A stretch of DNA of 13,845 nucleotides from Candidatus Micrarchaeota archaeon (GTDB lineage Archaea; Micrarchaeota; Micrarchaeia; Norongarragalinales; SBBD01): positions 1-13,845 of the forward strand of contig JBBSVW010000105.1 in the NCBI GenBank assembly GCA_038046605.1. The letters are read 5' to 3'. The notes below the pieces were generated by a model. The model was not told the origin of the DNA. It saw only the letters and a program-made list of their open reading frames with translations, and searched no databases. Below, piece after piece: positions 575-6,221 of the stretch (position 1 is the first letter of the stretch; each line of letters begins with the position of its first letter). Made by a program: the position numbers and the translations under genes.

Positions 575-862
575 GGGCGGCGGGCCGTAGTCCCCCTTCT
601 GTTTTTGGCAGCATTGTTCTAAGCGGCTCTAAATGGCCTTGCATCGTGCCAAAACGCTTTGGCATGCACAGATTGACCGTTTCACTTGAAAAAAGGGAAT
701 GTTCGTATTCCTCATCACTTTTTTCCCAATTCCCAATATCGTTTCTGTTCCAACCCTTTGCCTAAGGCAAGCATATTGCAGCTTGTGCAAGACATGACTT
801 ATCCCGATGGGGGGAACTTCCTCACTACCATTGCTGGCGTGTTAGCTGTCCACCCACCGCCC
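575..862 (-). ncRNA. rnpB: RNase P RNA (archaeal, structurally atypical)
   Basis: All five conserved regions in order on the minus strand: CR I GAGGAAGUUCCCCC (823-810), CR II ACAGAAAC (748-741), CR III GUGAAACGG (685-677), CR IV GCUUAGAACAAUG (624-612), CR V AACAGAAGGGGGACUAC (603-587). P4 pseudoknot GUUCCCCC/GGGGGAC; P1 GGGCGGUGGGU (862-852)/GCCCGCCGCCC (585-575); P5 CAUCG/CGAUG; P7 UGCACA/UGUGCA. Confidence 0.95.
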
Positions 863-970: not shown

Positions 971-3769
971 CTATTGCGGCGCTCCCGGGCACGTCTGCAG
1001 GCACGTTGGGTTCTCCCCCGGGCAATCACTGCAGGCATGCATCACAACTTTCCTGCAACAGCAGCTATATGAATTAGCCGTCCAGCTCCAGCTTTGGTAT
1101 TTGATATAATTGCATGTGGTGAAGCAGGCGGTTGGTTCGCCCTCATTCCCAAGCGTTGTGCATGTGAGCTGTGTTATTGCAGAACCAATTACTTCCGGAT
1201 AGCCTACGCTTGCGCAATAGGATGCGCAATTTACTGCAGAGGAATCGCAAACATCCCCAAGTCCATCGCCATCCATGTCGCTTTGGTCGGGATTGTAGGA
1301 GTTGGGGCAATTGTCCTGCGCATTCAAAATTCCATCACCATCAAAATCATTGGCATCCTGCGTTGGTGATGGGGAAGCGCTTGGTGAAGTTGTTGCTGAA
1401 GGCTGAACATATGTTGTTGGAGTGGGCGTTGGCGATGGGCTTGGATAAACATATGGCGTTGGTGAGGGGGGTTTTGAGGTCGTTGTGGGGAATGGAGTTG
1501 GGGAAGGGGGCCGCGTCGTTGTTGTTGGGAATGATGATGGGGATGCGGATGCATAAATTGAAGGTGTAGGTGAAGGGGGCCTTGTTGTGGTAGTTGGGAA
1601 TTTGGTCGGTCTAGTGGTTGTAGTCGGGTATTCCGTTGGCCGCTCAGTTGTTGTTGGAATCCCAACTGATGGATCCGGATAATCATAACCTACTTGAGGG
1701 GTTGTAAGCCTCCATTTGATATCAAGTGATATTTCATATTTTGGCGAGGGTTCAACTGATGGATATTCCGATGGCTGCGGCGAGGGGCTTGGCAGATGCA
1801 CATATGGCGAAGGTGTCGGTGAAGGAATTGCAATCCTTGGCGAAGGTGAAATTGTCACATTGCAGCAGTTGCATTCCTTGCTTTTGTAGCCCGTTGCCGT
1901 CTGCTTCCCATCAGAGACTACGCCCGCCCTGGTTTTTGCGAATTTATAGGCCTCAATTATATCAACCTGGCCATTCCCATCCTCATCTGCCACTATTCCG
2001 TTTTGCATCGCTAATATGAATGATTGCGTGAAATAGCCCCCATTTGAATTCGCCCACGAGGATTCCGTGGATTTTGCAGCTGATATGGCAATTTTGCACT
2101 CTCCGGTTGATACGACCTCAAGGGCCATCAGCTCCGAATGGCAAGTATCAAAAATTATGGTCTTGTCGCAATTGCGCATCCGATCAAGCCAGCCATTGAG
2201 GGTAGAAACATACATGTCCCCGCCCTCCTTTGAGCCATGGCCCTTGCTGAAGATTTTCAGGAAGGGAGTCTCAAAATATGGGTTTACGGTAAATGAGAGC
2301 TCCTTCACATTCGCATCAAAATCATACTCCTCGCGTAATTTGGCATATCCCGAATCCGTCAGGCTTGCTATCTGATCCGAACTCAATTCCATTTTGTCCC
2401 CATTGATCCTGTTCACAAAAAGCGCATTCGATTCATTTAGGCCGTGGGCAGCCGTATAAAAAACAAACGTGTCGCACTTTTCGAGGACTCCTGCCATAGT
2501 TATGAGCCCATCGACAAAGCTATTGATTGTCGTTATTCCATCCACGCCAGCAGTGACCGAAGTTGAAAGGTAGATAATGTTTCCCGGATCAAAACCCTGG
2601 GTCGTCAAAAGATTGTAGAAATCATCCGTATCCTTCTTGAAGGGCTCTTCATCGTATCCGGTAACAACCATCGCATATTTCTTTCCTAGCCCATCGCAGC
2701 ATGGCGGCTTGTTGCAAAGGGGGGATGCTGGCGCCTCGAAATATAATGAGGGAACCTTGGAATTTTTTGAATCGGAATATTCATCAAAGCGCAAAACGCT
2801 TCCTCCAACTGAGAGCTCCATTTTCTTGTCTTTCATGCTCAAATCCGGATTCTTTGGGTAAGCGATCAATTCCTTGCTTAATCGCTCATCAAAGCTCGCC
2901 CAATACTGCTTTCCATTAACCGTTGGCCACCAATCCTCATCCATCACAAAATACCTTCCGGTTTCCGGCTCCACGAAAACGTACTTCACCGGATGGGAGA
3001 ATCTGGAAAATGGTTCTTCATCAATGAAAAAGAAGAGGTATTTCCTTCCAACCTTGAATCCGCTTTCCTTCGCAGAACTTATGGCATCTCCGGCTGCCAG
3101 CACCTTATCAAATGAATAAACGAATTTTTTTGGATCCCCTCCCGCAACCTGACCATGCACCAATTTTGCCCCTGCCTCATAATCCAATGGCAGTTTTTCG
3201 CTTAGGAGAAGGAGATTTTTCAAGTTGGGGCAATATTTTGCAAATGCCGCCTTGAATGCCTCATCAAAGAATTTGATCTCTTCATCCTTTAGGGGGAATT
3301 TATCGATGCTCCTTGATTTCTTGAGAATGTTGGAAAGGGTTTGCATCATTTTTTTTGATTTTTCATTCCTTCCAATTGCCCCGCCCACCTTTTCGCTGTA
3401 TAATATTCCGGCATATATGCACTCGGCTTCATTCCTCTCGAATTTTCCTAGCGCCCGCTGTGTTTCCGTTATGGAATCATCCGTTTCAAGCACGCTTTCC
3501 ACATAATCCGCCGCACCCGTGAATTCGGGATTTGATGCCCGGAGTTTGGCAAGCTCAATCTTGGCGGTTTTCCGCGGCTCTTTTGAAGCAAAAATCCTAT
3601 CCAGAGCGTTGTCCAAAAGTGCGGTATTGATTGAGATTTCAATGCCTTCATCAGTAGGGGCGATGCTTGCCTTTGCCTGGAATTCCGGCGCTGGCAGCTG
3701 CGTCTTTTGCTGGACGCACCCGAATAAAATTACGCCCAATAGGATCAGTGCAATGATGATTTTATTCAT
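971..3769 (-). CDS. Large lipoprotein: clan CD cysteine peptidase (C13 legumain-like / caspase-like), EF-hand-like loop, Pro/Thr/Ser linker, thrombospondin type-3 repeat, Cys-rich C-terminal domain
   Basis: Likely start ATG 3769 (preceded by GGGGGTG RBS; the track start 3787 is a GTG adjacent to it). Signal peptide with lipobox MNKIIIALILLGVILFG|C. Dyad motifs FVFYTAAHG (His codon 2446-2444) and IIFDTCHS (Cys codon 2143-2141), followed by ISAAKSTESSW...GGYFT. DEDGNGQVDIIEAY loop; TSP3 DFDGDGILNAQDNCPNSYNPDQSDMDGDGLGDVCD. Confidence 0.85.
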   Translation of the reverse strand: MNKIIIALILLGVILFGCVQQKTQLPAPEFQAKASIAPTDEGIEISINTALLDNALDRIFASKEPRKTAKIELAKLRASNPEFTGAADYVESVLETDDSITETQRALGKFERNEAECIYAGILYSEKVGGAIGRNEKSKKMMQTLSNILKKSRSIDKFPLKDEEIKFFDEAFKAAFAKYCPNLKNLLLLSEKLPLDYEAGAKLVHGQVAGGDPKKFVYSFDKVLAAGDAISSAKESGFKVGRKYLFFFIDEEPFSRFSHPVKYVFVEPETGRYFVMDEDWWPTVNGKQYWASFDERLSKELIAYPKNPDLSMKDKKMELSVGGSVLRFDEYSDSKNSKVPSLYFEAPASPLCNKPPCCDGLGKKYAMVVTGYDEEPFKKDTDDFYNLLTTQGFDPGNIIYLSTSVTAGVDGITTINSFVDGLITMAGVLEKCDTFVFYTAAHGLNESNALFVNRINGDKMELSSDQIASLTDSGYAKLREEYDFDANVKELSFTVNPYFETPFLKIFSKGHGSKEGGDMYVSTLNGWLDRMRNCDKTIIFDTCHSELMALEVVSTGECKIAISAAKSTESSWANSNGGYFTQSFILAMQNGIVADEDGNGQVDIIEAYKFAKTRAGVVSDGKQTATGYKSKECNCCNVTISPSPRIAIPSPTPSPYVHLPSPSPQPSEYPSVEPSPKYEISLDIKWRLTTPQVGYDYPDPSVGIPTTTERPTEYPTTTTRPTKFPTTTTRPPSPTPSIYASASPSSFPTTTTRPPSPTPFPTTTSKPPSPTPYVYPSPSPTPTPTTYVQPSATTSPSASPSPTQDANDFDGDGILNAQDNCPNSYNPDQSDMDGDGLGDVCDSSAVNCASYCASVGYPEVIGSAITQLTCTTLGNEGEPTACFTTCNYIKYQSWSWTANSYSCCCRKVVMHACSDCPGENPTCLQTCPGAPQ
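1361..1858 (-). repeat. Intragenic low-complexity region with imperfect tandem PTTTTRPPSPTP / PSPSP units
   Basis: PTTTERPTEYPTTTTRPTKFPTTTTRPPSPTP...FPTTTTRPPSPTPFPTTTSKPPSPTP in the 938-aa ORF. Confidence 0.85.
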
Positions 3770-3824
3770 TTCCGCCACACCCCCCACAATGATTAGGATT
3801 CCCTAAAAAAATCATGTTTATGCA

Positions 3825-3956: not shown

Positions 3957-3995
3957 GAATTTTCATTTCTCTATGTGTTGGGAGTGGGTGACAAT

Positions 3996-6221
3996 ATGCC
4001 AAACGTGAAGCTAACCGTTATTATAGCAATTATTTTAGCCTCATTTTCTACCGCCACCTGGGATGTCTACGGCCAGGCATTGACAAATGATCCGAATGCC
4101 GATTTTGCGCCCGGCGTAGATGGGAATTACTTGACATATGTGAGCGGCCGGTCCGGCAATTTTTCATTAATACTTCAGGACCTTACTACTGGCGATGAAA
4201 CACAACTAACGGACGGCCTAACTGAGCAGCCATACCCGCTAAATCCCTCAATTGATGGCACAAAAATCGTCTACCAGTACTACGTGAATGGCCAATCCGA
4301 AATTTACCTGTACGATATTAGTGCAAGGTTCAATCAGCGGCTAACCACTGATGCCATCGACCAGTTGAACCCCAAGATAAGCAAGGACAAAATAATCTGG
4401 ATCGAGTATGGCAAGGGCGGCTCTTATGTTGTGTATTACGATATGAATTTCGTGCTAAGCAAGCCCCTAACCGATCCGGCATTAAACGTGCGATATGCCT
4501 CTATCGAAAACAATATCGTCGTTTATGCCTACGAGACAAATGGCCAGTACGATTTGCACTTATATGATCTTAGCACGAATACTGAAACTCCCCTTGCTGC
4601 CACTGCGGATAATGAAGTTCTTCCCCAGATTAAGGGCGGCCAAGTGGCATACTTGTCATATCCCCAAGGAGGAAGTTCCGCATCTGTTTATGTTTACGAT
4701 ATAGCTTCCCAAATAGCCAGGAAAATCACCCCTGACGGCGCAAATGCATCAATGCCCGCAATTGGAAATGGGATTGTTGCATATCCCGATGATCGTAACG
4801 GAAATTGGGATATTTATGCATACGATTTGAACACAAGTGAGGAAGTGCGCGTCACTTCAAGCGCCTTGGGCGAGAGCTATCCGCAAATCAGCAGAAAAGC
4901 AATTTATTATCACCAATTTGATCCAAATGTCGGATTAGGAATCGATATCCACAAGGCCACTTTGGTTGGGAATATGTCCGGCTCTGGCATGTTCCTTAAG
5001 GGGGATGCGGATTGGGATGGTGAATTGAAGCAGGCGGATGCGACGGCAATTTCGAGCTATGTGAACACCGGATCCCCGGTGCTTTCTCCGCTCCTTTTTT
5101 CCGATGCAAACGGGGATGCCAAAGTGGATGCATCCGATTCCAGCTACATATCTGCCCATCTAACGGGCGGGCCATCCCCTCCTGGCAATTACTACGGCCT
5201 TTTGGGCGTTGTGATGAGGGGGGATGTAAATTTTGATGGGGTGATCAATGTTTTCGATGTTACCCTGATCAACAAGATCGCCTTCCAGAATTTTCCAGCG
5301 CCGGATCCGTCCATTGTTGCAGATGCAAAGCCGGATGGGAAAGTCGACATTTTCGATGTGGCAATGGTTAATGATGCCGCCTTCAAGAACGGCGCCCTTC
5401 CCCTTCCAATTTTCAGGGGCGATGTAAATAACGATGTCAAAATCACCAAGGCGGATGTTGCTTTCCTGGAAAGTTACCTATCCGGCGGCCCTGCACCAGC
5501 TCCCATTGTTTTGGGAGATGCAAATGGGGATGGTTCCGTAAACCGAAAGGATGTGAATTACATTCTCGAATACCTATCCAATTTCGGCCCATGGCCAGTT
5601 GGCCCATATTACGGAGTTCCGCTCGTGCCAACGCCAACCCCGGGTGTTACCGCAGCCCCAACAGCCCCGCCTGGGGGGAATAACAATGGCGGCGGCTCAA
5701 GCAATCCTGGAGGGGATACGGCGCCAAAACCATCGCCTTCGCCAAATGCAACAGTAAAGCCTTCCCCAACTCAAAACCCCTCACTTGTGGGCATCGACAC
5801 GGAAACAGATGAGATTCTAAGGGAGCTCCATGAAAACGGGAAGGATACAACTGATGTTGAAGAACAGCTCCTTGTTGCGCAGGATTTGGAAATGCAGGGC
5901 AGGATTGAGGAATCCGAGCAGGTAAAGCTTGGAGCCCTTGCAAGGCTTAAGGTGATGCTTGCCAACTTGAAGGCGGGGAAAATTTCCACCAGTTGGCTGA
6001 TTGTTGGCGCTTTGATAATCCTGATTTTGGCCGGCACTGCCTACTATTATTTTGCCATGAAAAAGAAGGATGAAAACGCGGAAAAATCCGTCCTATCGGT
6101 TAGTGTCCTTGGGAATTCATCCGCAGGCCCGAGTATTGAAATGCCATCCGGTTTTGAAAAGCCAGAAGTGCTTGAGCCAATCAAGCTGGATTTGATGGAT
6201 AAGAAAATAATGAAAAAATAG
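3996..6221 (+). CDS. Secreted, membrane-anchored cell-surface protein: TolB-like/Methanosarcina-type beta-propeller repeats, three tandem type I dockerin-like domains, Pro/Gly linker, C-terminal TM helix
   Basis: Likely start ATG 3996 (RBS GGGTGA). Signal peptide; about seven repeats of the P-x-I-x-G-x-x-I-V-Y...G-x-x-D-I-Y-x-Y-D-L type (e.g. PAIGNGIVAYPDDRNGNWDIYAYDL). Six paired Ca-loop motifs at ~5001-5580 (GDADWDG/DANGDAKVD, GDVNFDG/DAKPDGKVD, GDVNNDV/GDANGDG). TM helix WLIVGALIILILAGTAYYYFAM followed by KKK. Confidence 0.88.
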   Translation: MPNVKLTVIIAIILASFSTATWDVYGQALTNDPNADFAPGVDGNYLTYVSGRSGNFSLILQDLTTGDETQLTDGLTEQPYPLNPSIDGTKIVYQYYVNGQSEIYLYDISARFNQRLTTDAIDQLNPKISKDKIIWIEYGKGGSYVVYYDMNFVLSKPLTDPALNVRYASIENNIVVYAYETNGQYDLHLYDLSTNTETPLAATADNEVLPQIKGGQVAYLSYPQGGSSASVYVYDIASQIARKITPDGANASMPAIGNGIVAYPDDRNGNWDIYAYDLNTSEEVRVTSSALGESYPQISRKAIYYHQFDPNVGLGIDIHKATLVGNMSGSGMFLKGDADWDGELKQADATAISSYVNTGSPVLSPLLFSDANGDAKVDASDSSYISAHLTGGPSPPGNYYGLLGVVMRGDVNFDGVINVFDVTLINKIAFQNFPAPDPSIVADAKPDGKVDIFDVAMVNDAAFKNGALPLPIFRGDVNNDVKITKADVAFLESYLSGGPAPAPIVLGDANGDGSVNRKDVNYILEYLSNFGPWPVGPYYGVPLVPTPTPGVTAAPTAPPGGNNNGGGSSNPGGDTAPKPSPSPNATVKPSPTQNPSLVGIDTETDEILRELHENGKDTTDVEEQLLVAQDLEMQGRIEESEQVKLGALARLKVMLANLKAGKISTSWLIVGALIILILAGTAYYYFAMKKKDENAEKSVLSVSVLGNSSAGPSIEMPSGFEKPEVLEPIKLDLMDKKIMKK

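Follow-up and report, generated by a model that had tools for sequence, protein, structure and literature searches.

The window, that is, the whole stretch of DNA analysed here (13,845 nucleotides), carries on its minus strand a gene that matched the archaeal RNase P RNA family RF00373 from end to end (Rfam covariance model; score 88.6 bits, gathering score 84, E = 7.8e-24). An RNase P RNA had been claimed here in an earlier note made from the letters of this DNA. A genome-wide search (1.64 Mb in 106 contigs, 90.7% complete) returned this match as the sole one, and positions 576-861 on the minus strand are the single-copy archaeal RNase P RNA of a Micrarchaeota genome. P1-P5, P7-P12 and P15, together with the motifs GAGGAA..UCC, ACAGAAACG, UGAAACG, GCAAG and ACAGAAGG, were all aligned to RF00373, and the flanks of the P4 pseudoknot, GAGGAA..UCC and ACAGAAGG, were aligned at high posterior probability. 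Pop5, Rpp30, Rpp21, Rpp29 and L7Ae are encoded by the same genome (Pfam PF01900, PF01876, PF04032, PF01868 and PF01248, respectively, all above the cut-off, with the Pop5 match truncated by a contig end), and no match to the protein-only HARP enzyme was obtained in this 90.7% complete genome. Judged by these sequence matches, the RNA would provide the catalysis in an ordinary archaeal RNase P with five proteins, with the cleavage of pre-tRNA 5' leaders as its presumed activity.

The neighbouring long frames, 971-3787 (minus strand) and 3975-6221 (plus strand), seem to encode large proteins, secreted or on the cell surface, that have nothing to do with RNase P; a thrombospondin type 3 repeat, accompanied by a weak match to peptidase C13, and three stretches of dockerin type I were seen in them. 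No tRNA gene was found in the window. Complete copies of the stretch occur in groundwater metagenome runs, from which it may originate, and sediment metatranscriptome contigs with a likeness of 90-95% or lower span about 575-855; the latter are a weak hint that the RNAs of relatives are abundant and no proof of transcription. The contigs of four sequencing runs gave no informative additional stem variants. The features of the RNA are as follows.

576 to 861, minus strand: RNase P RNA gene, 286 nt, matching model positions 1-288 of the 288 of RF00373
810 to 815, minus strand: P4, 5' strand, pairing with 591-596; 100% paired, 3/6 pairs changed on both sides
805 to 809, minus strand: P5, 5' strand CAUCG, pairing with 642-646
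790 to 804, minus strand: H1, the 5'-side hairpin between P5 and P7, GGAUA-AGUCA-UGUCU, 5 pairs (2 of them G.U) and a 5-base loop
784 to 789, minus strand: P7, 5' strand UGCACA, forming 6 pairs with 665-670
770 to 783, minus strand: P8 hairpin with the 8-base loop UGCAAUAU, its stem differing among family members
758 to 770, minus strand: P9 hairpin UUGCC-UUA-GGCAA, 100% paired and almost invariant in the family
665 to 670, minus strand: P7, 3' strand UGUGCA (script mapping)
647 to 664, minus strand: H2, the 3'-side hairpin between P7' and P5', UGCCAAA-GCGU-UUUGGCA, 7 pairs and the loop GCGU
642 to 646, minus strand: P5, 3' strand CGAUG, with the conserved CAAG of J5/15 directly after it
625 to 638, minus strand: P15, a short hairpin GGC-CAUUUAGA-GCC of 14 bases with no P16/P17 after it

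The strings and the coordinates that had been given earlier for P5, H1, P7 and H2 proved exact when the minus strand of 642-809 was mapped by script. On the 3' side of P5' the order is CAAG, the P15 hairpin (638-625), J15/2, P2', P4' and P1'; J15/2 (GCUUAGAACAAU) begins directly after P15, and P16 and P17 are absent from the window's RNA. In type A RNAs the P6 pseudoknot ties the catalytic domain to the P5/P7 hinge. Here P15, a 14-base hairpin without P16/P17, leaves the P6 strand without its usual partner, and the 5' linker, correctly named in the earlier note as the strand that makes P6 in type A, has nothing to pair with in that way. The P8 stems read by eye in the family were AGC/GCU, GGC/GCC, GGCC/GGCC and UCG/CGA. 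In the full-length minimum-energy fold of the window's RNA (z only -1.57), H2 was present and H1 was absent.

The host family consists of 11 species genomes in 4 genera, of which 10/11 gave an RNase P RNA match and 7/11 a match above the RF00373 cut-off, so that the family comparison covers 10 sequences from 4 genera only. Pairs were counted on a plain MAFFT alignment of these 10 RNAs with own structure imposed, in which some rows are out of register. For the whole structure, 92.2% of cells were paired, versus 79.7% in shuffles and 38-47% with the partners slid. P5, which in the form used here ends directly before CAAG, covaries (3/5 pairs changed on both sides, 98% of cells paired). When the two hinge segments and the P5-to-P5' domain were aligned separately with MAFFT, genera 2-4 and G006 came out of register, and these alignments were not used for pair counts. 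Pattern scans with a 21-letter degenerate motif lacked specificity and matched at least 120 genome stretches and at least 118 metagenome stretches; among the matches listed only one (L066) was RNase P RNA, and it lies on the same contig as the RNase P RNA of G008. Another stretch from these scans, L244, turned out not to be RNase P.

The strands of P7' and P5' are contiguous in the RF00373 consensus, which agrees with the earlier note, and the model has no positions for the 18-base insert that makes H2. Because positions are lacking there, H2 is forced by Infernal onto those of P5', J5/15 and P15 at low posterior probability, and in G004 and G002 its first four bases are taken as P5' and the next ones as the GCAAG motif. 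When the family RNAs were parsed by script, an uninterrupted hairpin of 5-12 bp was found directly before P5' in 10/10, with the stems UGCCAAA/UUUGGCA, UGCCCGC/GCGGGCA, GGCGCA/UGCGCU, GAUGCG/CGCAUU, CAGCGCU/AGCGCUG, GGCGCG/CGCGCC, AGCGC/GCGCU and GGUGC/GCACC, and a 12-bp form. The loops (GCGU, GAAA, AAAAAAA, UUCA, UCCG and others) are unrelated, and the length of H2 ranges from 14 to 33 bases. All of its pairs (7/7) were changed on both sides among the 10 RNAs, and 81% of cells were paired despite the misregistered rows. Folded in isolation, H2 gave a perfect hairpin in 10/10 (-4.9 to -15.3 kcal/mol, z from -2.3 to -4.4); the one in the window reached -7.1 kcal/mol (z = -2.28) and was equalled by 2/200 shuffles. 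RNAalifold did not predict H2 on the full family alignment and did so on a 9-sequence alignment of the P5-to-P5' domain, from which G006 was omitted for its much longer hairpin. H2 is real and family-wide, and the earlier proposal of a 3' hairpin is borne out by its presence in 10/10 members and by the covariation of 7/7 pairs, as counted on the MAFFT alignment.

The misreading of H2 by Infernal in G004 and G002 counts in favour of a possible two-state switch, by which the 5' strand of H2 would swap with the true P5', so that the canonical P7'-P5' continuity would alternate with the four-way junction. Pairing of H2 with the 5' strand of P5 appeared possible by eye in 5/10 (G004, G003, G002, G008 and G009) and impossible in the other 5/10, the window's RNA included; moreover, the distal P5', which immediately precedes the conserved CAAG, covaries and has 98% of its cells paired. 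Such a switch is considered scarcely credible. The 5' half and the loop of H2 (647-664) resemble P5' plus CAAG (637-646), and likewise in L010, L011, L027 and L018; because of this resemblance H2 is aligned by Infernal to the P5'/CAAG positions. As a speculation, H2 may stem from a local duplication of the P5'-CAAG segment.

H2 could also serve as a binding platform for an RNase P subunit or for a lineage-specific protein. Expansions of P12 and P3 in archaea are reported to add protein-binding sites (in the part of PMC12974513 consulted). By eye, H2 holds neither a K-turn nor another conserved motif, and the sequences of both its stem and its loop turn over, so that a platform of this kind is thought very improbable.

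On the 5' side, 4-5 pairs of H1 are possible in 10/10 family RNAs, and H1 is the minimum-energy fold of the isolated segment, with only -0.4 to -2.6 kcal/mol. The H1 of the window alone gave -1.0 kcal/mol (z = -1.03) and was matched by 17/200 shuffles, and 70/200 shuffles folded as well as the H1 of G003. By itself, H1 in the window's sequence is not beyond chance, and the case for the four-way junction therefore comes from the relatives. Its 3' strand is the same in 10/10, and its 5' arm varies by transitions only (G/A opposite U, U/C opposite G), by which G.U or U.G pairing is kept by default; in the 10-RNA family alignment no compensatory change was found, as no H1 pair was changed on both sides. 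Between the arms lie 3-5 hypervariable bases, with 9 different loops among the 10 RNAs, and the arms are complementary in 10/10. RNAalifold predicted H1 and P7 on neither the full nor the domain alignment, and gave as alternatives UUGCA/UGCAA (with L8) on the full alignment and UGUCUUGCA with the P9 region on the domain alignment. Neither pairing of the invariant stretch, with L8 or with the P9 region, shows covariation, and both conflict with P8 or P9.

The invariant stretch is AUGUCUUGCA, composed of the 3' arm of H1 and the start of P7 (784-794 of the window) and identical in 9/10 family RNAs, with freely varying helices beside it; it was also seen in L010, L011, L014, L016, L018, L024, L027 and L029. 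Sequences complementary to it occur in L8 (UGCAA) and in the 3' half of P9 (AAGGCA), and the GUCU of the stretch also fits, by eye, a family-specific AGAC in J15/2. Such conservation, together with the marginal stability of H1, would be expected if the 13-15 bases from P5 to P7 were single-stranded or paired elsewhere and conserved for a sequence-specific contact, leaving a three-way junction of P5, P7 and H2. The 5' linker is indeed only 3-6 unpaired bases long in two RNAs of a distant family (G082 and G134) that have H2-like hairpins. Against this stand the hypervariable centre of the segment between arms that are complementary throughout the family, and the clear hairpins at this site in other families. 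In addition, the alternative partners are taken, since P9 is universal and P8 covaries, no covariation was seen in any alternative, and the L8 pairing is impossible in G006 while P7 still forms there. The three-way arrangement is regarded as rather improbable, and H1 is preferred as the more probable structure of the linker.

For the ten other families of the order, P5-constrained folding predicted a local hairpin no more than 2 bases away from P5 in 29/37 RNAs; P5 was set in 37 of the 42 order RNAs outside the family, was mis-set in some of them, and was found in none of the remaining 5. These hairpins are unrelated in sequence and between 12 and about 97 bases long, and a 5' hairpin is common across the order. 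Neither a P6-like pairing of H1 or its loop with L15 nor a loop-loop pairing of H1 with H2 was found when sought by eye, the loops being neither conserved nor complementary. The 5' hairpin of the earlier note stands in so far as it can form in 10/10 family RNAs, and it is weakened by its marginal stability, its invariant 3' strand, the lack of compensatory changes and its absence from the RNAalifold predictions. H1 is accordingly plausible but weak.

In the window's RNA there are zero unpaired bases between P5, H1, P7 and H2, and two four-way junctions are placed in series, P5/H1/P7/H2 and then the universal P7/P8/P9/P10. As parsed by script, zero unpaired junction bases were present in 5/10 family RNAs (the window's RNA, G005, G004, G003 and G002) and 1 to 3 in the other five; the script was wrong for G009, and for G008 it took a sub-optimal H1 (a 3-bp stem with an 8-base loop, where visual reading gives a 4-bp stem). 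Read by eye, G007 too is flush, provided that P5 is closed by a G.U, a G stands opposite a G next to P5 in G008, G009 and G010, and one to three bases are spare in G006. P7 keeps a UGC(A)/(U)GCA core of 3-6 bp in the family; G006 differs there and yet still pairs. The perfect four-way junction that had been described before is exact for the window's RNA, and no more than about half of the family share its flush form. There is support for H1 and for the flush junction, but it is weaker than that for the identity of the RNA, H2, P5 and the absence of P16/P17.

Altogether 119 RNase P RNAs were read: 10 belong to the family, 42 to the order's other families and 67 to 20 further families of the class. 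RF00373 matches were obtained in 53/68 genomes of the order (36/68 above the cut-off) and, at E <= 1e-5, in 134/151 genomes of the class sample (86/151 above the cut-off), a tally that includes one unpublished genome outside the set that was read. Many Micrarchaeia RNase P RNAs are only 191-250 nt long, and many of them are probably missed by routine annotation. No hairpin of at least 5 bp was present between P10'/P7' and P5' in the 37 RNAs of the order's other families; at the position of H2, 3-4 bp would be possible in three RNAs of a single genus. Among the families of the order, only this one has the 3' hairpin. In L002, L006, L005, L012 and most RNAs of the families f2, f7, f9 and f11 of the order, a single helix lies between P4 and the P8/P9/P10 junction. 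In these RNAs P5' follows the 3' strand of P10/11 without a break, GAAAC and CAAG being 23-25 bases apart; there the separate P7 seems to have been lost and the 5' hairpin to stand within a five-way junction. A P7 of its own is lacking in the majority of the order's RNAs outside the family.

Elsewhere in the class, hairpins at the position of H2 were found in 3/8 RNAs of one distant Micrarchaeia family (GCAGGC/GCCUGC, UGCCGC/GCGGCA and CCCCC/GGGGG), which have a normal P7 and, in G082 and G134, the short, unpaired 5' linker given above; the five relatives without a hairpin have an 8-base linker there. Because this family has H2-like hairpins of its own, the 3' hinge strand gained a hairpin more than once. 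Four-way parses of 77 non-family RNAs were almost all spurious, with large loops that hold conserved motifs, and the sole clean one (G087) was, on closer reading, a three-way junction with a normal P7.

This distribution bears on the possibility that H2, like H1 wherever it is formed, is a neutral expansion segment, that is, an insert in a hinge strand tolerant of insertions that survives only if it folds on itself and that adds no function. The spread of H2 lengths and its unrelated loops, its absence from the order's other families (0/37 with at least 5 bp), the wide range of lengths of the 5' hairpins in the order, and the look of an insertion hot spot that the distant family gives, with unpaired flanks in two of its three hairpins, are all consistent with such an origin. 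However, H2 is kept in 10/10 across 4 genera despite a complete turnover of its sequence, and in at least half of the family no bases are left over between it and P7' or P5', a fit that is not required of a random insertion. A merely neutral origin is held to be unlikely, and a structural role of the two hairpins at the hinge is preferred.

When compared with the known types, the RNA shares P1-P5, P7-P12, P15 and the conserved motifs with type A (as given by the RF00373 consensus) and differs from it by having no P6, P16 or P17, by an 8-base insert that forms H1 together with the linker, and by the 18-base insert between P7' and P5'. It resembles type M in having no P16, no P6, a short P15 hairpin and Pop5, Rpp30, Rpp21, Rpp29 and L7Ae, and it differs in keeping P8 (770-783), with a stem that varies among relatives; to our knowledge, no helix is present on either strand between P5 and P7 in type M, and likewise in the RF00373 consensus. 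Type M, of Methanococci and Archaeoglobus, is described as lacking P16, P6 and P8 (PMC4919922, as far as its text was available). In type P/T (Thermoproteaceae) the specificity domain is almost wholly missing, whereas the window's RNA has P7-P12. Since P6/P16/P17 are absent, P8 is kept and the specificity domain is present, the RNA fits neither type A, nor type M, nor type P/T, respectively.

The bacterial type B is similar in that its P5.1 hairpin stands between P5 and P7 on the 5' strand of an RNA without P6, the same position as that of H1; type B has nothing at the position of H2. Other helices of type B are P10.1 and P15.1. For type B helices there is no room after P15 here, and only RF00373 reached its gathering score in the window, with overlapping clan matches suppressed. 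Unlike P5.1, H1 has no docking partner here, is only 4-5 bp long with a loop that is not conserved, and belongs to an archaeal, protein-rich enzyme; the likeness of H1 to P5.1 is one of position only, to be read as an analogy and not as membership. P5.1 has been described as an alternative bridge to the interdomain junction (PMC12974513), with a docking partner that is named L15.1 in PMC5066622 and P18.0 in PMC12974513, and the loss of P6 coincided with the gain of P5.1 in Bacilli, according to the portions of these papers at hand. The same part of PMC12974513 states that the losses of P6, P16 and P17 in archaea generally occurred without added RNA segments, as proteins take over.

No literature on the structure of RNase P RNA in Micrarchaeota or DPANN was found; in the available part of PMC6380272, DPANN are mentioned for HARP and proteins only, and the supplements of PMC12974513 may bear on the claim. 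As the earlier note had suspected, no publication that describes this hinge was found, and its layout is apparently undescribed, as a variant of a known ribozyme.

The reading that is favoured, with some reserve, is that the hinge was rebuilt after the loss of P16/P17 and P6, and that the P5/H1/P7/H2 four-way junction most likely acts as a rigid X-shaped brace. P16 and P17 would have been lost in the lineage, and the P6 pseudoknot would have been lost as a consequence; H1 would then fill the former P6 strand on the 5' side, and the stable H2 would have been inserted between P7' and P5'. P5, H1, P7 and H2 would thereby meet in a four-way junction, flush in the window's RNA, in which only neighbouring arms could stack. 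In the Thermotoga maritima RNA, P1/P4/P5 and P7/P10/P11/P12 form separate coaxial stacks, and P6 stacks with P15-P17 (PMC4919922, in the part consulted). In the window's RNA, P5, at the end of the first stack, and P7, at the start of the second, would each be prolonged by one of the hairpins. A crossing of these two stacks at a fixed angle could then stand in for the lost P6 bridge, with P5.1 in Bacilli as the precedent. This stacking and bracing role is inferred. No docking partner can be named because the loops of H1 and H2 are not conserved, and their variability argues against a specific docking contact. Nor is H2 needed simply because P6 was lost, since sister families of the order without P16/P17 have no H2 and often no separate P7.

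The RNase P RNA types (A, B, C, M and P/T) are a textbook case of a conserved ribozyme core with a changing scaffold. It is possible, although held with slightly less than even confidence, that the RNA of this family is a distinct structural type, in which the P6/P16/P17 brace was replaced by a second four-way junction a few bp below P7/P8/P9/P10, that is, by an RNA-only, type B-like convergence, an exception to the rule of no RNA expansion, and that the hinge of Micrarchaeia is an evolvable module. If so, this module would comprise 5' hairpins, 3' hairpins and K-turn-like loops in different lineages. This lineage lost P6/P16/P17 yet gained RNA at the hinge, on a strand without any consensus bases. 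If the junction does fix the angle between the domains, the RNA, with its 286 nt, its five known proteins and two hairpins that can be deleted, would be a small natural model that could reveal how a protein-rich RNase P sets the orientation of its domains. Annotation pipelines may miss or misdraw these RNAs because the scores lie at or below the Rfam cut-off and the hinge is misaligned by Infernal.

Several further observations were made in the class. In the families f14, f15 and f18 of other orders (L296/G163, L311/G142, L298/G086 and relatives), the RNAs of which are about 230-270 nt long, a conserved asymmetric internal loop lies between P5 and P7, with 5' AGA versus 3' N-G/A-U-G-A (for example GGUGA, UGUGA or AAUGA); the 3' motif was present in 1/1 RNA of f14, 6/6 of f15 and 5/7 of f18, and the loop resembles a K-turn with one extra A. 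If L7Ae binds it, it would be a K-turn at the domain hinge, which is not known from the described RNase P RNAs. Second, partial or weaker RF00373 matches (G021:C26:1376-1500, G035:C46:9383-9562, G090:C8:640-964 and G145:C3:32634-32807), some of which cover the specificity domain only (model positions about 40-190), may derive from fragmentation, contamination or duplication. P3 is enlarged by inserts of about 40-60 bases in L011 (G002; 1359-1417) and L014 (G003), both of the window's genus. Extra hairpins in J2/4, between P2' and P4', were seen in L030 (G017), L013/L022 (G038/G022), L272/L274 (G023/G065) and L341 (G135), and J2/4 is an apparent further insertion site in the class.
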